From an uncultured Holophaga sp. (GTDB lineage Bacteria; Acidobacteriota; Holophagae; Holophagales; Holophagaceae), in the NCBI GenBank assembly GCA_963664825.1, contig OY761614.1:928001-992000 (forward strand): 64,000 nucleotides of DNA, in the 5' to 3' direction. This document shows, one piece after another, positions 26,960-55,937 of the stretch. The position numbers and the translations under genes are program-made. The notes beneath the pieces were generated by a model, which worked only from the letters and a program-made list of their open reading frames with translations, was not told where the DNA came from and made no database searches. How positions within the stretch are numbered: position 1 is the first letter of the stretch; every line of letters starts with the position of its first letter.

Positions 26960-27949
26960 TCAGGTGGACATGGGTTCGCCAGCCCATGATGTGTCGAAAG
27001 CAGCCCTAATTCGGGAGGAATCCCAGCCCATGCCCAGGACCAGTCCCAGCTTGGCCAGGGCCGCCCACCGCGTATGCAGGCCTCCCCCGATGGCACCCTC
27101 GCCAGCGGCCTGGGCTCCCAGTTCGTAGGTCTCCAGATCCACGCCACCCCAGAGGCACTGGGTAGTGACCACCATGGGCAGCTCCCGCTCCCGGCCGAAA
27201 CGGAACAGCGCCTGGAGATCCGGCCGCCCCATGGGCAGATTGCCCGCCCCATAGGCCTCGATCAACACGCCCCGGGTGCCCTCGGCAGGCAGGGGCCAGG
27301 TCATGCCCGGAAAGGGCGTATAGACGGCCAGCTCCGAGGCGAAGGCGGTTCCCAGCCCCGGGGGGGTCCGCGGGGTGAAGGCCCCCGCATGGGCATGGAA
27401 GCGCACATGGAGGCCCAGCTCCGCCAAGGGGGGCAGATTGGGCGAATCGAAGGCCCCGTAGCGGTCCACGCTCAGCTTATCGGAGGCCACGCCGCGGTAC
27501 CAGTGATCCCCGAAGCAGATGCCGATTTCCGCGACGCCCTTGGTGGCCAGCGTCACGGCGTCCACCAGATTGCTGCGGGCATCGCTGCGCACATAGGCCA
27601 GGGGCCGCTGGGAGCCCGTGAGCACCACGGGCTTGCCCAGATCGGCCAGCAGGAAACCCAGCATGGAAGCCGTAAAAGCCATGGTGTCCGTGCCGTGGAC
27701 CAGCACCACCCCATCGCATTCCTTGGATTCCGCGCGAATGAGGCGGGCCAACTGGAGGATATCCCCGGGCTCGTTGATGGAGGAATCCTGGTTGAAGGCC
27801 ACCACCAGCTTCAGATCGGCCAATTGCCGCAGTTCCGGCACCTGTTCCAGGATCAGTTCGAGGGAGGGCCCGGGGGCCAGCGAAGAGGGCTCTCCCGAGG
27901 GCGCCATGCCCAGGGTGCCGCCGGTATGGAGGAGAAGAATGGTCGACAT
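26960..27949 (-). CDS. ansA: Type I (cytoplasmic) L-asparaginase
   Basis: HTGGTLGM, HGTDTM, LTGSQRPL, FDSPN, YGAGN; no signal peptide. Confidence 0.88.
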   Translation of the reverse strand: MSTILLLHTGGTLGMAPSGEPSSLAPGPSLELILEQVPELRQLADLKLVVAFNQDSSINEPGDILQLARLIRAESKECDGVVLVHGTDTMAFTASMLGFLLADLGKPVVLTGSQRPLAYVRSDARSNLVDAVTLATKGVAEIGICFGDHWYRGVASDKLSVDRYGAFDSPNLPPLAELGLHVRFHAHAGAFTPRTPPGLGTAFASELAVYTPFPGMTWPLPAEGTRGVLIEAYGAGNLPMGRPDLQALFRFGRERELPMVVTTQCLWGGVDLETYELGAQAAGEGAIGGGLHTRWAALAKLGLVLGMGWDSSRIRAAFDTSWAGEPMST

Positions 27950-49532: not shown

Positions 49533-50132
49533 ATGAAGCTGCGCCACGCGCACGGGATTGCCATCGCAGGACTGGCCCTGGTGGCAAGCCTTGGCTGCCA
49601 CAGGTTTTCCAGGGATAACAGCAAGGTCATCGCCAATGTCGCAGGCGAAAAGATCACGGAAAAGGCCTTCGCCGAGACCATCAAGGCCATGGTGCCCGAC
49701 GAAGCCAAGGCCAAGGAGATCCTCACCAGCGAGACCCTGCGCGATAAGCGCAACGAGTTCCTGGGCCAGGTGGCCAAGGCCAAGGCCCTGATCCTGCTGG
49801 GCAAGGCCCAGGGCCTGGACAAGGACCCCGCCGTCAAGCTCCGCATGGAACAGATGACGGCCCAGGCCTACGTGCAAACCCTCATGGAGCGCCGCCTGGC
49901 CAAGGCCCAGCCCACGGATGCCGAGCTCAAGGCCACCTACGACGAACTGGTCGCCGAGCGGAAGGCCCAGGGCCAGGACCAGGCTGTCCCGCCCTTCGAG
50001 CAGGTCAAGGCCCAGATGCCCGCCCTCTGGAAGCAGCGGCAGGAGACCAAGGTCTTCGAGCAGCTCATGAAGGAAGCCACCCAGAAATACCAGATCACCT
50101 ACGCCGACGCCTACAAACCCGCGCAGCAGTAA
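49533..50132 (+). CDS. Lipoprotein with SurA/PrsA N-terminal-like domain, no recognisable PPIase domain
   Basis: Lipobox SLGC; VIANVAGEKIT, GLDKDP, PFEQVK. Confidence 0.75.
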   Translation: MKLRHAHGIAIAGLALVASLGCHRFSRDNSKVIANVAGEKITEKAFAETIKAMVPDEAKAKEILTSETLRDKRNEFLGQVAKAKALILLGKAQGLDKDPAVKLRMEQMTAQAYVQTLMERRLAKAQPTDAELKATYDELVAERKAQGQDQAVPPFEQVKAQMPALWKQRQETKVFEQLMKEATQKYQITYADAYKPAQQ

Positions 50133-50153
50133 GGCCCAATTTGCTTTATGGGA

Positions 50154-50179
50154 AAGGGGGCGCTGGCGCCCCCTTCTTA
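50154..50179 (+). terminator. Intrinsic terminator
   Basis: aagggggcgc-tg-gcgccccctt followed by T-rich sequence. Confidence 0.65.
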
Positions 50180-50210
50180 TGTCCCGACGGGACCAGCCGT
50201 CGCATCTTCG

Positions 50211-50740
50211 TCATGCCTTCCGCCCCCGCTTCTGCTTGACCTGGGTCTCCAGGGCTTCCAGCTCCGCGAGATCCTGGCGATCGGCTTCCTGGGCATCGAG
50301 CTGTTTGCGGCGGGCGTCGAAAGCCTCGAAGCGGGTATGGATTTGCTCGGACATGGCTTCGTGGCTGATGCTGCCCTTACCCTTCAAGAGTGGCAGTTCC
50401 TGGAAGGCGATGAGGCTGTCCTGCTTGCGCACGATGCGGCCCTGCCAGGTGGTGAGGGCCATGTGGGGTTGGGTGGGATCGGCCCGCTCCAGGACGAGTT
50501 CGGCCGCCGTGCGCTCGGTGGCGGCAAAGTTGTTAAGTAGTCCTTAACAACTGAACCAGCGTTCAACTCCTTTTCCTGCAATATCTTAGAGATGTGCATG
50601 CTGGTATTAGGCACCGAGGTGGCAAAAAACTCAGTGAGCTGGGCCTGGTTCATCCAGACGGATCCATCCCGGGCCATCAGGGACAAGGCGGCCTTGCCGT
50701 CATCGGTGCGGTAGAGGATGACTTGGGTATCGTCGGCCAT
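50211..50740 (-). pseudogene. RhuM-family (virulence-island) protein pseudogene with internal deletions and a frameshift
   Basis: ILYRTDDG...VWMNQAQL..F...HI..I N-terminus, then in another frame FAATERTAAEL...MALTTW, then LL.GKGSISH..A C-terminus; much shorter than a full family member. Confidence 0.75.
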
Positions 50741-50919
50741 TAAAGCAACTTTCAAAGGCTAAGGGAGGGATGCCGTTACCGATGGGAGTCCACCTGGAAC
50801 CCGGCCTTCAAGTCTAGTTCATTCCCGTCCCCACCCTTCACCGCCCATCACGAAAGAAGCCCAGGCGGGCCCAGGCTTCTCTTGACCATAGAATCATTGG
50901 GCGCTCGCGCCCCCCGATT

Positions 50920-52347
50920 CTATTTCCAGTGCTTCTCCACGAAGGCGTCCACTTCGGGCAGGCCGCCCTGAAGGATCAGGTAGCCGTTGTGGGGCTCCCG
51001 GGTCTCGATCTCGTGGTTGATGGCGGTGGTCATCATCTGGCGGATCGTCGCAGGGTCATCGGTCTGCCCCAGCACCCAGGCCAGCTTCATGTAGGCGGTC
51101 TCAGGCAGCATGTTATCCATGGGGATGATGCCCAGATCCAGCAGATCCCGCCCCGTGTCGTAGACGTACATCTGGGCGAAGCCCCAGAGGGTCTGCACGC
51201 ACATCACCACGGTCATGCCCTTCTCGATGGCCCGGCGGATGGCCGGATAGAGGGGCTTGTTCACGTGCCCCAGTCCCGTGCCGGCCATGACGAGGCCGCG
51301 GTAGCCCATGGAGGAAAGCCCATCGATGATGTCGGGATTGAAGTTGGGGTAGTAGTACTGGATCGTCACCTTCTCTTCGAAGCTGGGGTTGATGATGGGC
51401 TTGCGCGTCTTGTCCCGGCGGAGGATCTCCTCGGAGATGTAGGTAAAATGGCTGCCGTTGGCGTTGGGGTAGCGGCTCACGGTGGCCAGGGGGGTGGCGC
51501 CGATGGTGCGGAAGGTGCTGCGGTAGGAGGAGTGCATCTTCCGACAGCGGGTGCCCCTGTGCAGCAGATCGTAGTTGTCCGAGGTCGGCCCGAACATGCA
51601 GAGCATGACTTCGGCGATATCGCATTCGGCGGCCGTGCGCACGGCGTCCATGAGGTTCAGGGCCGCATCCGACGAGGGCCGGTCCGAGCTGCGCTGGCTC
51701 CCCACGATGACGATGGGCACGGGGCTCTGCTGGACCATGAAGCTGAGGATGGCGCCCGTGTGGCTCATGGTGTCGGTGCCATGGCCCACGACGATGCCGT
51801 CGACGCCCTTCTCGATCTCCTTGCCGATGGCGATGGCCAGGGCCTTGTACTGCTCGGGGCCCATATTCTCGCTGAAGACGCCGAAGAGCTTTTGCGTATC
51901 CAGATTGGCGATATCGGCCAGTTCGGGCACGGCGCCATAGAGCTCCCCCGGCGTGAAGGCGGGGATGACAGCGCCTGTCCGATAATCGAGGCGCGAGGCG
52001 ATGGTGCCCCCCGTGCCCAACAGCGTGACGTTCTTCTTCTTGGGGTCGTAGGGGAAAGCCTTCTCGGGAATCTTGTAGACGGCCTTCTTGTAGCCCTTCT
52101 CCTGGACAGAGACGATGCGGTCGGCGTGGATGCCCACGTTGTAGCCGTTGAAGAGCTTGATGACCACATGCTGATCGTCGGCGGTCTCGCTTCGGGGAAG
52201 GATCACGCCGATGAAGCTCGAGCCCTTGTCATTGAGGATCTCGACCTCGCTCCACACGCCGATTCCAAACTTCTCCAGCGTCTCCTTGGCCAGGCCTCGA
52301 TAGCCCTGGAAGGGGTTGGTGCGCTCTGCGAAAGGTGTCGTTGTCAT
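50920..52347 (-). CDS. gatD: Glu-tRNA(Gln) amidotransferase subunit D (archaeal-type)
   Basis: GatD N-terminal domain (VIKLFNGYNVGI) + TGGTIASRLDYRTGAV, HGTDTM, GSQRSSDRPSSD, RKMHSSYRSTF, GTGLGHV, MLPETAYMKL. Confidence 0.92.
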   Translation of the reverse strand: MTTTPFAERTNPFQGYRGLAKETLEKFGIGVWSEVEILNDKGSSFIGVILPRSETADDQHVVIKLFNGYNVGIHADRIVSVQEKGYKKAVYKIPEKAFPYDPKKKNVTLLGTGGTIASRLDYRTGAVIPAFTPGELYGAVPELADIANLDTQKLFGVFSENMGPEQYKALAIAIGKEIEKGVDGIVVGHGTDTMSHTGAILSFMVQQSPVPIVIVGSQRSSDRPSSDAALNLMDAVRTAAECDIAEVMLCMFGPTSDNYDLLHRGTRCRKMHSSYRSTFRTIGATPLATVSRYPNANGSHFTYISEEILRRDKTRKPIINPSFEEKVTIQYYYPNFNPDIIDGLSSMGYRGLVMAGTGLGHVNKPLYPAIRRAIEKGMTVVMCVQTLWGFAQMYVYDTGRDLLDLGIIPMDNMLPETAYMKLAWVLGQTDDPATIRQMMTTAINHEIETREPHNGYLILQGGLPEVDAFVEKHWK

Positions 52348-54311
52348 CGCAGGACCTCCGCGGAGCCCGTGCCAGGGGCGCCTCCGCTGGTGTTGGGGCT
52401 GGAACCTCCCTCAAGCTTGGCGCGCAGGTAATCGGCGACGTCCTTGGCCGGAGCCTTGCCCAGGAGTTGTTCCATGGCGCGCCCGGCCAGAAAGCGCAGG
52501 CGCTTTTCCTGGGTATCCACCTTCTCGCCCTGGTAGCCCTCCATGGTGAGGCGGTCCACCTGTTCCTTCCACCTTTCCCGGGGCTGGATCGCCACGCCTT
52601 CGGCGCTGGCGGCCGCTTCCGCGGAAAGGCCATCCTCGGCCACACGGGCCGCCACGATGGAGATGGTCTCCCGGGGGATGAGCCCCCCTGTGAAGAGATC
52701 AAAAATTTGCACCCATTCGGAAACGCCCAGGCGTTCCACGGGGATGCCCGCCCGCTTGAGGGCCTTGCTGTGCTGGCCGATCTCGATGGCCGCCAGCAAC
52801 CCGTCCACGCCGGTCTTCTCGATGACCGCATCGAGGATCTCCGCCCCGCCCCGGCGAATGAGATACTGGCAGGTTTCCTCGGGCACGCGCCAGGACATGT
52901 AGCGCTCGATGCGCTTCCAGGGCACGGGTCGCAGGCGGGCCCGCAGACCCTCCACGCGGTCGTTGGTGACGCGGGTGGGCGGCGAATCCGTATCGGGATA
53001 CATGCGATCGGGACCGGGCAGGATGCGTTCGAAGGTGGTGAAGCCACCCGTCACCGCCTGGCGCGTCTCCTGGGGCACGCCCTGGGTGGCGTCGGCAAAG
53101 CGCAGGCGGATCTCTTCTGCGGCCGTGCGGCAGTCGTCCTCGGGGCCGAAGACGAGGAAGAAGTCGTCCCTTTCCCCCACCCGGGCCCGCTTGCGCAGGC
53201 GTTCGAGCACCCTGTGCTTATCGGGGAATTCCGGTAGCAGGGCACCACTCAGCACGATGGGCGCCTCGTCCAGGCACGCGATGACGCGGATGCGGCCGGA
53301 GAGTTCGTCCAGGAAGGTGGTATCGGGCTGGGTGGGATACTGGGCCAGGCCCGCCACACCCTCCACCTTCACGGCAAAGACCTTCCCGCCCACCTTGAGG
53401 GCCCGGCGCAGGAAGCCCAGATCCACCTCGGCGCAGATATCCGAGACATCGAAGGGCTGGACATGGATGGATTCACGGGTGCTGAGGCCCCTCGCATGGA
53501 GCTCGTCCCGCAGCTTCAACAGATTGCACTGGCGGACGCCTTCGTTGTGGACCAGCTTCACGGCGTAGCCCGCCCGGGGCACGCCCTTGATCTCGCAGCG
53601 ATTGCCACCCCGCACGCTGACATTCACGTCCTGGCGGCTGGCGCCGATCCCGGTGCGCACGCGCTGGGTGGAACGGGCGGTCATGCCGCAGAGGATGATG
53701 GCGTCCCGCACTTCCTGGGGCGAGCGCAGCTCGGGACCGGTCACGGTCTCCGTGAGCGGCATGCCCAGGCGATCCGTGCGCCACACGATCTGGTGGCCCT
53801 TGTCGCGCACCTCCCGGCAGGAATCCTCCTCCAGGCTCACATGGGTGATGGTGAGATCGCGGCCGTGGAAGGGCAGCTTCCCGTTCATGCCGATGATGGC
53901 CGTGCGCTGGAAGCCCGTGGGGATGGAACCATCCAGGTACTGCTTCCGGGCGATATGGATCTCGTCGATGATGTCCATGCCCATCATCAGGCAGAGCTCG
54001 ATGGAGGCGTCGATGGCCTCCTGGTTCACGAGGAAGGGCGGCGTGTCGTCCATCTCGTAGGTGCAGACGTTCTGGTGGTTCAGGAGGTAGATGATCTCCT
54101 TCTTCGTCTTGAATTCCATGAGGGCGGTGCCATCGTACTCCCCCAGTTCCGAGAGGGTCGGTCTCATGTGGCGCAGCACTTCCCCATCGTGGGTCTCGGT
54201 GTAAAGCCCTGCCGGGCAGCGGCAGAACAGCTTGTGCTTGGTCAGCAACTGCTGATGCACCTCCAACCCAGAGATGAGTCCTACGGCTTCGTAATCCAGA
54301 CGCTCAAGCAT
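52344..54311 (-). CDS. gatE: Glu-tRNA(Gln) amidotransferase subunit E (archaeal-type)
   Basis: DYEAVGLISGLEVHQQL, RPTLSELGE, DGSIPTGFQRT, LEEDS, DRLGMPL.E, RQDVNVS, EIKGV, AspRS-like insertion, RMYPDTD, YqeY-like tail; ATGA overlap with gatD. Confidence 0.92.
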   Translation of the reverse strand: MLERLDYEAVGLISGLEVHQQLLTKHKLFCRCPAGLYTETHDGEVLRHMRPTLSELGEYDGTALMEFKTKKEIIYLLNHQNVCTYEMDDTPPFLVNQEAIDASIELCLMMGMDIIDEIHIARKQYLDGSIPTGFQRTAIIGMNGKLPFHGRDLTITHVSLEEDSCREVRDKGHQIVWRTDRLGMPLTETVTGPELRSPQEVRDAIILCGMTARSTQRVRTGIGASRQDVNVSVRGGNRCEIKGVPRAGYAVKLVHNEGVRQCNLLKLRDELHARGLSTRESIHVQPFDVSDICAEVDLGFLRRALKVGGKVFAVKVEGVAGLAQYPTQPDTTFLDELSGRIRVIACLDEAPIVLSGALLPEFPDKHRVLERLRKRARVGERDDFFLVFGPEDDCRTAAEEIRLRFADATQGVPQETRQAVTGGFTTFERILPGPDRMYPDTDSPPTRVTNDRVEGLRARLRPVPWKRIERYMSWRVPEETCQYLIRRGGAEILDAVIEKTGVDGLLAAIEIGQHSKALKRAGIPVERLGVSEWVQIFDLFTGGLIPRETISIVAARVAEDGLSAEAAASAEGVAIQPRERWKEQVDRLTMEGYQGEKVDTQEKRLRFLAGRAMEQLLGKAPAKDVADYLRAKLEGGSSPNTSGGAPGTGSAEVLR

Positions 54312-54433
54312 CGGAATCCTTCCGGTAATGGGTACACTCACGGAAGGGTCCCGCCTTCGGGGACCCATCGTCAAGCCGCAAAATCTTCTGAAATCGAGGA
54401 ATGACGGGCGTCACAGCCTCTGGACGACAAAAG

Positions 54434-54463
54434 ACCGCCCGGCCTCCGAAAAGACCGGGCGGT
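54434..54463 (-). terminator. Intrinsic terminator after pepD
   Basis: accgcccgg...ccgggcggt stem with A-run on the + strand. Confidence 0.65.
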
Positions 54464-54488: not shown

Positions 54489-55937
54489 TCAGGCCTTTTC
54501 CAGCACGGCCGTCACCAGTTTCCAGCAGTTGCTCACGGACGGGATGCTCAAGTGCTCGTCGGGGGTGTGCACATCCCACATATCGGGGCCGATGGAGACC
54601 ATCTCCATCTCGGGATATTTCTCGCCGATGAGGCCGCACTCCAGGCCCGCATGGATGGCCACCACCTTCATGGGCTGGCCGAAGAGCTGCTTCTGCAGGC
54701 CGTCCACGAGCTTCACCAGGGAAGCATTGGGCTCGGGCTTCCAGCCGGGATAACCGCCCACCAGATGGGACTCGAAGCCCGCCATGGCGCAAACCGCGGC
54801 GATGCGGTGGGTCAGGGCGAACTTGGAGGCATCGATGGAGCTGCGGGAGAGGAGATTGATCTCGATCTTGCCATCCTTGGTATCGATGACGCCCAGGTTG
54901 GTGGAAGTCTGGACCAGGCCCTGGATATCGGGGCTCATGGCCTCGACGCCGTGGGGCAGGCAAAGGATCAGGCTGATGACGGAGACCGCGTCGTGATCGG
55001 ACATGACCTGGCCCGCCACGCCGGCTTCCAGGCTCATGACCAGCCCGGGATCGAAGGCGCCGAAGGCGGCCTTCCAATCGGCTTCCTGCTTGGCCAACTC
55101 GGCCTTGAAGGCCGCTTCCTGGGCAGGCGCCAGATAGAGATAGGCGGAAGCCTCTCGGGGAATGGCGTTGCGCTTATTGCCGCCCTTGATCGCGGAGAGC
55201 TCGAAGGCGAAGTCCGGCCGCAGGGCATAGAGCACCTGGCCCAGGATGCGGATGGCATTGCCGCGGCCGGCGGGGATATCGATGCCGGAATGGCCGCCCT
55301 TGAGGCCCGAGATCTTCAGGCGGAAGGGCTTCTTGGCTGCGGGAGGCGCGCTCAGGGTGAGCTGGCGGGTCGTGATGGTATCGACGCCCCCGGCGCATCC
55401 GATGGTGAGAAATCCCTCTTCCTCGCTATCGAGATTGAGGAGGTACTTGGACTTCAGCCAGTTGGCCTGGATGTTGGTGGCGCCCGTGAGACCCGTCTCC
55501 TCGTCGATGGTGACCAGCAGCTCCACGGGACCATGGGCGATGTCCTTGCTGGCCATCACCGCCAAGCCCATCGCGACTCCGATGCCGTTATCGGCGCCCA
55601 GGGTCGTGCCCGTGGCCCGGAGGTTATCGCCATCCCGGCGCAGCCGGATGGGATCCTTGAGGAAGTCGTGCTGGGTGTCCTCGTTCTTCTCGCAGACCAT
55701 GTCCACATGGGCCTGGAGACAGACGCCGGGGCGGTTCTCCTTGCCCTTGGTGCCGGGCTTGCGGATGAGCACGTTGCCGATGGCGTCCCGGGAGACATCC
55801 AGGCCCAACGCGCGGCCCTGGTCGGCCACCCAGTTCGCAGCCTCGGCTTCCAGCTTGGATCCCCGGGGGATCTTGGAGAGTTCGAAGAAATAGTTCCAGA
55901 GCGGATTGGGCTCTAGGGTTGCGAGAAGCTTATCCAC
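54489..55937 (-). CDS. pepD: Aminoacyl-histidine dipeptidase (M20)
   Basis: QAHVDMVCEKN, TTLGADNGIG, DEETG, NLDSEE, GGHSG, HAGLECG, HTPDE. Confidence 0.95.
   Translation of the reverse strand: MDKLLATLEPNPLWNYFFELSKIPRGSKLEAEAANWVADQGRALGLDVSRDAIGNVLIRKPGTKGKENRPGVCLQAHVDMVCEKNEDTQHDFLKDPIRLRRDGDNLRATGTTLGADNGIGVAMGLAVMASKDIAHGPVELLVTIDEETGLTGATNIQANWLKSKYLLNLDSEEEGFLTIGCAGGVDTITTRQLTLSAPPAAKKPFRLKISGLKGGHSGIDIPAGRGNAIRILGQVLYALRPDFAFELSAIKGGNKRNAIPREASAYLYLAPAQEAAFKAELAKQEADWKAAFGAFDPGLVMSLEAGVAGQVMSDHDAVSVISLILCLPHGVEAMSPDIQGLVQTSTNLGVIDTKDGKIEINLLSRSSIDASKFALTHRIAAVCAMAGFESHLVGGYPGWKPEPNASLVKLVDGLQKQLFGQPMKVVAIHAGLECGLIGEKYPEMEMVSIGPDMWDVHTPDEHLSIPSVSNCWKLVTAVLEKA

Follow-up and report, generated by a model that had tools for sequence, protein, structure and literature searches.

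An Archaeal-Type GatDE Amidotransferase Operon in a Bacterium with GlnRS and GatCAB

Introduction

GatDE is described as an amidotransferase of archaea only, present in archaea that lack glutaminyl-tRNA synthetase (GlnRS) (PMC2330236, PMC8007984, PMC9499178), where it reads the A1:U72 pair of tRNA-Gln (PMC2330236, PMC9499178), and reviews from 2008 to 2022 treat it as an archaeal signature that co-evolved with archaeal tRNA-Gln (PMC2330236, PMC2811023, PMC8007984, PMC9499178). GatE binds the mischarged tRNA and, with ATP and Mg, phosphorylates the side-chain carboxyl; GatD hydrolyzes Gln or Asn, and a tunnel carries the ammonia to GatE for amidation of the activated intermediate (PMC2330236). 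Reading of the first base pair is ascribed to an element of the cradle domain, a 3-10 turn in bacterial GatB and a short, conserved, positively charged loop in GatE, and a GXXAXGX motif is described in the GatE tail (PMC2811023). Deinococcus, Thermus, and Bdellovibrio are reported to have GlnRS, asparaginyl-tRNA synthetase (AsnRS), and the bacterial amidotransferase GatCAB together (PMC4206432).

Here we analyze the gatE-gatD operon (gatED) of an uncultured Holophaga sp. (Acidobacteriota), which lies in a 64,000-nucleotide stretch of its chromosome (the window; positions 928,001 to 992,000 of contig OY761614.1, assembly GCA_963664825.1). Judged by sequence, the pair belongs, as an unremarkable member, to a large bacterial clade of GatDE. 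The archaea-only description does not extend to it: the chromosome is bacterial and encodes GlnRS, as do 42 of the 45 GatE-positive genomes of the phylum. Our preferred reading, held tentatively, is that gatED encodes a working GatDE-type amidotransferase of a bacterial branch that has been re-tuned to U1:A72 and acts on Glu-tRNA-Gln. The genes are as follows.

52344..54311, minus strand: gatE, kinase/amidotransferase subunit, 655 amino acids, ATG start at 54311
50920..52347, minus strand: gatD, glutaminase subunit, 475 amino acids, ATG start; GatD N-terminal domain and asparaginase-type core
52344..52347, minus strand: ATGA overlap of the gatE stop and gatD start, from the open reading frame (ORF) coordinates; putative translational coupling

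The operon shares with archaeal GatDE (M. thermautotrophicus, 2D6F, with tRNA-Gln; Pyrococcus abyssi, 1ZQ1) the two subunits and their domain order, the Mg ligands, the GatD active-site stretches, the short GatE-type cradle loop, and the adjacency of the genes. It differs in that the host is bacterial and also has GlnRS, GatCAB, and AsnRS; in that the tRNA-Gln of the host, and the gatE-linked tRNA-Gln of relatives, has U1:A72, whereas the archaeal enzyme reads A1:U72; and in that the bacterial clade lacks the tail motif and has an alanine followed by a small residue, not Thr-Ile, in the loop. Bacterial GatCAB (Staphylococcus aureus, 2DF4/3IP4) likewise couples a tRNA-dependent kinase to a glutaminase and serves U1:A72 tRNAs, and the distribution described below suggests that GatDE stands in for it. 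However, its glutaminase is the amidase GatA, whereas GatDE uses the asparaginase homolog GatD and no GatC, and the longer DGNMEEGS turn region of GatB (the 3-10 turn of PMC2811023) is missing from the window GatE. The nearest archaeal neighbor of the whole bacterial clade is a Heimdallarchaeota GatE cluster, P0156 (a member of which NCBI names Candidatus Heimdallarchaeota archaeon), which is 38% identical to the window GatE but keeps the archaeal loop and tail motifs, and which is a single sequence from a metagenome-assembled genome (MAG). As in Deinococcus, Thermus, and Bdellovibrio, an amidotransferase is retained despite both direct synthetases; there it is GatCAB, whereas here one of archaeal type comes on top of it, or takes its place in relatives. 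In those three genera GatCAB is kept for asparagine synthesis with a nondiscriminating AspRS (ND-AspRS).

Identity of the Gene Pair

Curated models and structure-chain alignments place the two proteins as true GatD and GatE, not as GatB or the asparaginase AnsA. Both reach curated equivalog cut-offs, GatE with 481.6 bits on NF003107 (cut-off 456) and 425 on TIGR00134 (319.55), and GatD with 480.8 bits on NF003217 (310) and 479.4 on TIGR02153 (324). GatE falls far short of GatB (131.6 bits on the best GatB model versus a cut-off of 338), and GatB chains match it only over residues ~95–266, whereas it aligns with archaeal GatE over its full length (1–634 to 1ZQ1_C and 5–634 to 2D6F_C). The Pfam domain GatB_N, with a profile of 277 positions, is spread over residues 14–453, which points to a large insertion; alignment and Pfam together give a cradle domain with a large insertion domain, a helical domain, and a YqeY-like tail, the last scoring 22.1 on Pfam, below the gathering score of 27. 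The Mg ligands described for M. thermautotrophicus GatE, His15, Glu157, and Glu184 (PMC2330236), align with His19, Glu161, and Glu188 of the window protein, and these positions are kept in the consensus of the bacterial (52) and archaeal (79) rows, as well as in the GatB rows.

GatD aligns to 2D6F_A over residues 15–450 (E value 1e-110), whereas plain asparaginases reach at most 124 bits, and its stretches TGGT(I/V)AS, HGTDTM, RSSDRPSSDA, and RKMH are identical or near-identical to those of 2D6F_A. Pfam finds GatD_N (48.8 bits, cut-off 25.7) and both asparaginase domains, so that GatD is not a free-standing AnsA. These results bear out the preliminary description of the window, which had set GatD, with its extra N-terminal domain, apart from an ordinary asparaginase at 26960: the latter (ORF 26960–27949, 329 amino acids, type-I-asparaginase-like) has no N-terminal domain of the GatD kind and reaches 136 bits on GatD models. 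The motifs cited there, RPTLSELGE, DGSIPTGFQRT, and RMYPDTD in GatE and ASRLDYRTG and SQRSSDRPSSD in GatD, are all present in the translations.

Both genes are intact, as had been claimed, and ATGA is the only possible reading of the four-base overlap. Their composition is host-like: the G+C content at third codon positions (GC3) is 0.855 in gatE and 0.893 in gatD, against 0.848–0.881 in mfd, pepD, and mreB. Of the bacterial genes said to surround the pair, MreB and Mfd were those confirmed by profile search. The ratio of nonsynonymous to synonymous substitution rates (dN/dS) of both genes is 0.08–0.15 against the five closest loci and 0.12–0.26 against three more distant ones; both are under purifying selection.

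Distribution among Bacteria

The pair is not the peculiarity of this lineage for which it had been taken. Of 251 phylum genomes with a completeness of 90% or more, 45 carry GatE, and these belong to 31 of 165 genera; and a scan of species representatives (one genome per species) gave at least 606 pattern matches, at least 580 of which were confirmed as relatives. In a class sample made up of the host and 40 relatives, GatE was above the cut-off in 17 of 41 genomes. Its presence is all-or-none by family, with 8/8, 3/3, and 3/3 genomes in some families and 0/19, 0/20, and 0/15 in others. The NCBI and JGI pipelines already annotate such proteins as GatE.

The best 80 of the at least 580 matches, kept as 73 loci, were used for locus comparison. 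They are 43%–90% identical, lie on contigs of up to 5.7 Mb, and carry labels including Holophagaceae, Vicinamibacterales, Thermoanaerobaculia, Terriglobales, Planctomycetota, Gemmatimonadota, and Ignavibacteriales, though some MAG labels may be wrong. In 67 of the 73 loci, gatD comes directly after gatE with the same orientation, the remaining six ending at a contig edge, and both frames are intact wherever both genes are visible (67/67). No conserved partner gene was found beside gatED by tblastn among the 73 loci; the flanks vary beyond close kin, and pepD lies upstream of gatE in about seven close loci only.

Phylogeny and Origin

Trees were built from the best 150 representatives (50%-identity clusters) of a search of 1.84 billion proteins, the full-length ones being combined with 18 labeled bacterial loci and GatB outgroups. 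In a FastTree of 132 rows, all 19 labeled bacterial rows fall in one 52-row clade (support 97), and the remaining 78 rows group together with support 99. We relied on a thorough search with IQ-TREE (67 rows under LG+G4, five GatB outgroups, log-likelihood [lnL] −65351.2), a quick search having given a poorer tree. It recovers the bacterial clade at 100/100 and joins it with the Heimdallarchaeota-labeled cluster at 99/99. The 31 bacterial-clade rows comprise 12 window or labeled loci, one candidate-division bacterium, and 18 unlabeled rows; clade labels came from cluster look-ups, which returned seven useful labels for 30 proteins. Identity of the window GatE to archaeal representatives is ~30%–38%.

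In the thorough tree the GatB root adjoins a Thorarchaeota-labeled sequence, so that the bacteria are nested within archaea. Constraining all 31 archaeal rows together makes the tree 8.52 lnL units worse, which the approximately unbiased (AU) test does not reject (p-AU 0.383). The unrooted relations are solid and the rooting is not; by the AU test, both a nested and a sister position relative to archaea are compatible with the data. An old transfer from archaea, as put forward in the preliminary description, is the favored reading of the origin of the bacterial clade: the clade stands beside Heimdallarchaeota with the GatB root among other archaea, but the tree that keeps all archaea together also survives. 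Within one tight subclade, labels of different phyla are intermixed at 66%–90% identity, which points to transfer of gatDE among bacteria as well.

tRNA-Reading Elements

The loop facing the 1:72 pair has the GatE length in both the bacterial and archaeal clades of the alignment, and in the window GatE it is two residues shorter than the DGNMEEGS region of five bacterial GatB rows. Its residues differ: archaeal rows have T (61/79) and I (73/79), whereas bacterial rows have A (41/52) followed by A, S, or T. The Arg preceding these residues, found in 76 of 79 archaeal rows, is replaced in many bacterial ones (T in 26 and R in 20 of 52). At the tail site the window protein reads QEKRLRF, the bacterial clade being more basic there, whereas the Heimdallarchaeota sequence retains the archaeal states (loop KRGIGTIRQD, tail GQRALGK). 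The GatE insertion domain is retained in the window protein.

Other Routes in the Host Genome

The host genome is one closed contig of 3,474,696 bases. Profile searches of this chromosome found GlnRS (729 bits), GatB (522.7), GatA (532), and AsnRS (624), together with a bacterial-type AspRS and LysRS; since these enzymes are present, GatDE is not needed for Gln-tRNA in the host, and the suggestion that it supplies the lineage's Gln route is not supported. Neither AsnA nor AsnB had a match in the host genome by profile search. There is one full bacterial GluRS; a further match, considered as a possible tRNA-Gln-specific GluRS2, was rejected as a truncated GluQRS-like gene.

Both host tRNA-Gln genes, (CUG) and (UUG), have U1:A72 and A73 according to ARAGORN, in keeping with the bacterial pair named in the preliminary description; tRNA-Asn also has U1:A72, and tRNA-Glu and tRNA-Asp have G1:C72. 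A third tRNA-Gln call of 82 nt (G000:C1:3083857–3083938), without CCA and with irregular arms, was taken as false. About 1 kb away lies an 87-nt tRNA-Arg call (G000:C1:3084869–3084955), also with odd arms and no CCA; the two irregular calls are probably false or tRNA-like elements.

The host AsnRS (G000:C1:1332274–1333644) belongs to the higher of two AsnRS score classes seen in the phylum, at least 600 bits in 14 of 251 genomes and ~470–510 bits in the rest. Thirteen of the 14 high-scoring genomes are GatE-positive (eight in family f40, three in f20, and two in f1, including the host).

Co-occurrence with GatCAB, GlnRS, AsnRS, and AsnB

GatE, GatB, GlnRS, and AsnB were cross-tabulated over the 251 phylum genomes, three of which (G067, G091, and G185, flagged as unpublished) were counted only in GatE-negative cells and in totals.

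GatE present, GatB present, GlnRS present, AsnB present: 12 genomes
GatE present, GatB present, GlnRS present, AsnB absent: 3 genomes, including the host
GatE present, GatB present, GlnRS absent, AsnB present: 2 genomes
GatE present, GatB present, GlnRS absent, AsnB absent: 1 genome
GatE present, GatB absent, GlnRS present, AsnB present: 18 genomes
GatE present, GatB absent, GlnRS present, AsnB absent: 9 genomes
GatE absent, GatB present, GlnRS present, AsnB present: 87 genomes
GatE absent, GatB present, GlnRS present, AsnB absent: 20 genomes
GatE absent, GatB present, GlnRS absent, AsnB present: 48 genomes
GatE absent, GatB present, GlnRS absent, AsnB absent: 15 genomes
GatE absent, GatB absent, GlnRS present, AsnB present: 30 genomes
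GatE absent, GatB absent, GlnRS present, AsnB absent: 2 genomes
GatE absent, GatB absent, GlnRS absent, AsnB present: 4 genomes

GatE is found in 27 of 63 GatB-less but in 18 of 188 GatB-bearing genomes, an odds ratio of 7.1 whose nominal p value is too strong, kin not being independent. In lineages with GlnRS, GatDE behaves like a substitute for GatCAB. Judged by gene inventory, none of the genomes examined has it as the sole route to Gln-tRNA or Asn-tRNA; AsnRS is encoded by 246 of the 251, including every one of the 45 with GatE. Five GatE-bearing genomes drawn from loci of other lineages agree, with GlnRS in 5/5, GatB in 3/5, and AsnB in 4/5. Whatever retains GatCAB in the 87 genomes that have GlnRS, AsnB, and GatB without GatE may also retain GatDE.

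AsnB is negatively linked to GatE in the class sample (AsnB in 4/17 GatE-positive versus 18/24 other genomes), more weakly so in the phylum sample (32/45 versus 169/206). Genomes without AsnB make up 9 of the 27 with GatE only, 39 of the 188 with GatB, and 2 of the 36 without an amidotransferase; in other words, 48 of the 50 AsnB-less genomes keep an amidotransferase.

Four genomes (G236, G237, G239, and G280; 92%–98% complete) had no GlnRS, GatB, or GatE at the thresholds used; their missing Gln-tRNA route probably reflects assembly gaps or divergent genes.

Discussion

In the mechanism that we tentatively prefer, the single host GluRS, which has Lys where discriminating enzymes have Arg and might therefore be nondiscriminating, would make Glu-tRNA-Gln. 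The host GatE would phosphorylate the side-chain carboxyl of this mischarged tRNA, as in archaeal GatDE, and GatD would free ammonia, delivered through the tunnel to GatE for the amidation that yields Gln-tRNA-Gln. The bacterial branch would have shifted from the archaeal A1:U72 tRNA-Gln to the bacterial U1:A72 tRNA, and GatDE would act in the host as a second amidotransferase next to GatCAB and parallel to GlnRS. In relatives without GatCAB, it would assume the remaining GatCAB job. The intact catalytic residues, the purifying selection, and the changed loop beside the 1:72 pair, all described above, speak for this reading.

Glu-tRNA-Gln is favored over Asp-tRNA-Asn, a possible alternative substrate, in part by tRNA genes near gatE. 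In 3 of 58 loci scanned (L052, L063, and L042), a tRNA gene lies upstream of gatE, 60–70 nt away and in the same orientation. Those of L052 (5857–5931) and L063 (84–158) encode tRNA-Gln(CUG) with U1:A72 and are 99% identical, although their MAGs are labeled as different classes. In all three genomes, the linked gene is the second one for the CUG isoacceptor. Relative to the L052 copy, the twin in G286 (G286:C390:2604–2678) is 100% identical, the copies in G287 (twin at G287:C37:5176–5250) are 99% and 96% identical, and the L042 variant is 88% identical. This variant (L042:4188–4263, plus strand, 69 nt upstream of gatE) is tRNA-Gln-like, with the anticodon loop AUCUACU, a CUA anticodon, and an unusual C37; ARAGORN names it “Pyl,” and it may represent a copy in decay or a natural suppressor. 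We also count retention of the insertion domain for Glu-tRNA-Gln and against Asp-tRNA-Asn, as modeling predicts that this domain clashes with ND-AspRS (PMC2330236).

The corresponding argument from GluRS is weak. At a site held by Arg in E. coli GluRS and T. maritima GluRS1, the host enzyme carries Lys; so does T. maritima GluRS2, crystallized as a GatC fusion, and an Arg358-to-Gln change is reported to make T. thermophilus GluRS nondiscriminating (PMC2978374). The weakness lies in the equivalence of the Lys column to Arg358, which is itself inferred, and in the Arg of enzymes that must be nondiscriminating, given below. No column separates must-be-discriminating from nondiscriminating GluRS among 68 rows from 52 genomes.

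Many phylum genomes carry two GluRS paralogs (alignment column 451, loci L105–L171). In one paralog group the presumed Arg358 site is non-Arg in 20/20 copies from amidotransferase genomes and Arg in 5/6 copies from amidotransferase-less genomes.

A weak hint of transcription of gatED in a relative comes from metatranscriptome run X2: gatD, gatE, and pepD each have X2 contigs that are 95%–99% alike, and the other flanks have none. In the RNA runs X1, X3, and X4, only 0.05–0.06 of the words were present. One X2 contig joins across 104 bases in pepD (window 55709–55814), with 175 letters on the shorter side, which may be a strain deletion in the relative or an assembly artifact.

Several observations weigh against the preferred reading. 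All 45 GatE-positive phylum genomes have GlnRS (42) or GatB (3). All 27 GatE-only genomes have GlnRS, whereas 63 of the 170 that carry GatB without GatE lack it, and the sole GlnRS-less family with GatE retains GatB in 3/3 genomes. ARAGORN found no A1:U72 tRNA-Gln, the pair that archaeal GatDE reads, in the host genome. None of 51 bacterial rows has the complete tail motif GxxAx[G/S]x, versus 24 of 78 archaeal rows, the archaeal count being a lower bound since indels shift the anchored register. The tRNA-Gln linkage occurs in the 3 of 58 loci only and not in the window. Arg stands at the candidate GluRS column in 9/9 single-copy GluRS from genomes whose enzyme must be nondiscriminating, and in 13/14 rows of the other group. 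The X2 library, finally, could contain DNA, and the parts of the window free of X2 are uninformative.

Action on another tRNA or substrate, the alternative given in the preliminary description, may hold. The alternative that survives best, which we regard as possible but rather unlikely, is that the bacterial enzyme uses Asp-tRNA-Asn as its main or an additional substrate, providing tRNA-dependent asparagine in the manner of GatCAB in Thermus and Deinococcus. This would explain the replacement of GatCAB only where GlnRS covers glutamine, as it does in every GatE-only genome. The host lacks a match to AsnA or AsnB, and its tRNA-Asn and tRNA-Gln share U1:A72; AsnB loss is concentrated, as counted above, in genomes that keep an amidotransferase; all four genomes of genus g17 have GatE, GlnRS, and AsnRS but no GatB, AsnA, or AsnB; and the loss of the GatE tail motif from the bacterial clade points the same way. 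However, AsnB is above the cut-off in 18 of 27 GatE-only genomes, and also in G043 and G044 from other lineages, and the nine GatE-only genomes without it span just three families, in a phylum table that covers AsnB and not AsnA. The universal AsnRS of the GatE-positive genomes means that none forces this role for translation, and no tRNA-Asn gene, but only tRNA-Gln, is linked to gatE in the 58 loci. The insertion domain predicted to clash with ND-AspRS (PMC2330236) is retained. Archaeal-type ND-AspRS was not found above the cut-off in five GatE-bearing genomes (G000, G025, G027, G062, and G197), but nor was it in five amidotransferase-less ones, and the best matches coincide with AsnRS loci, so that this search does not discriminate between the readings.

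Less probable again, and in our view unlikely, is a broader scenario in which a deep bacterial GatDE lineage, dating from before the archaeal radiation or from an early Asgard-like source, would have exchanged A1:U72 for U1:A72, lost a motif excluding tRNA-Asn, and become in many GlnRS-containing bacteria the sole amidotransferase doing the GatCAB job, asparagine included.

It is improbable that GatDE has been repurposed for a special tRNA isoacceptor, a tRNA-like RNA, or tRNA-dependent metabolite synthesis. Such a role would fit an enzyme that by inventory is never required for translation, yet is under strong purifying selection, as well as the departure of both published tRNA-reading elements from the archaeal enzymes and the CUA-anticodon variant at the tRNA-Gln position in L042. 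However, gatED has no conserved partner gene beside it; the catalytic core and all domains are conserved over the full length with the tRNA-Gln enzyme; and GatCAB is equally unneeded in the 87 genomes with GlnRS, AsnB, and GatB but lacking GatE, so that retention needs no new substrate.

That gatED is a redundant leftover without present function, kept by chance beside GatCAB and GlnRS, is very improbable: although other host genes cover every possible translation role, both genes have a dN/dS of ~0.1, 67/67 loci retain intact frames, and the all-or-none presence in families (8/8, 3/3, 3/3) indicates long retention. The chance that the operon is an assembly or binning artifact, with archaeal DNA fused to a bacterial contig, is next to negligible: the chromosome is a single 3.47 Mb contig and GC3 is host-like, the junctions are bridged by public-run contigs from three studies (gatD-downstream flank, X5; gatD-gatE, X5 and X9; gatE-pepD, X5 and X8; X5 may be the source sample and hence not independent), the order pepD-gatE-gatD recurs in assemblies of several relatives, and the nearest homologs, among the matches listed, sit on bacterial contigs of up to 5.7 Mb; the check for a chimera proposed in the preliminary description thus gave no sign of one.

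The interest rests with the bacterial clade rather than with the window pair. The supposed restriction of GatDE to archaea has been used in arguments on why archaea never took up GlnRS and on GatDE in LUCA (last universal common ancestor), and the bacterial clade is a new data point for the LUCA question. Facing U1:A72, it is a natural experiment on how the tRNA identity rules of an amidotransferase change, and for biochemistry it is an uncomplicated target, with a single enzyme, two candidate substrates, and defined differences in motifs. The clade is apparently undescribed in print: no paper on bacterial GatDE was found in the open full-text literature, subscription journals and supplements lying outside the search, and the only paper there that names both GatDE and Acidobacteria does so in unrelated passages.

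Leader Region and Neighboring Sequence

Upstream of gatE, the following elements were read from the sequence, the terminator by eye.

54312..54428, minus strand: gatE 5′ leader
54323–54317, minus strand: Shine-Dalgarno-like GGAAGGA in the gatE leader
54366–54346, minus strand: hairpin in the gatE leader, GGGTCCC, 7-nt loop, GGGACCC (perfect 7 bp)
54429..54462, minus strand: putative terminator, GC hairpin followed by a T-run

The putative terminator lies directly 3′ of the pepD stop codon (54489) and parts pepD from gatED. The leader hairpin is placed between this terminator-like element and the Shine-Dalgarno-like sequence; any role for it we infer only. An Rfam scan of the gatE surroundings gave no family match apart from a single chance-level small RNA match inside pepD. 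A TTG at 54374 is a possible alternative gatE start, giving an ORF of 676 amino acids (52344..54374), but relatives do not back it; the ATG at 54311 is preferred, because tblastn matches of relatives begin at residue 1 in most loci.

The window segment 20001–34000, which contains the asparaginase-like gene 26960–27949, has a lower G+C content (0.545–0.599 versus ~0.65 elsewhere) and may be foreign or differently constrained. Downstream of gatD, positions 49533–50755 hold three small ORFs (199, 123, and 83 amino acids) with no NCBIfam match, and the 199-amino-acid ORF is found again beside gatD in about five close loci.

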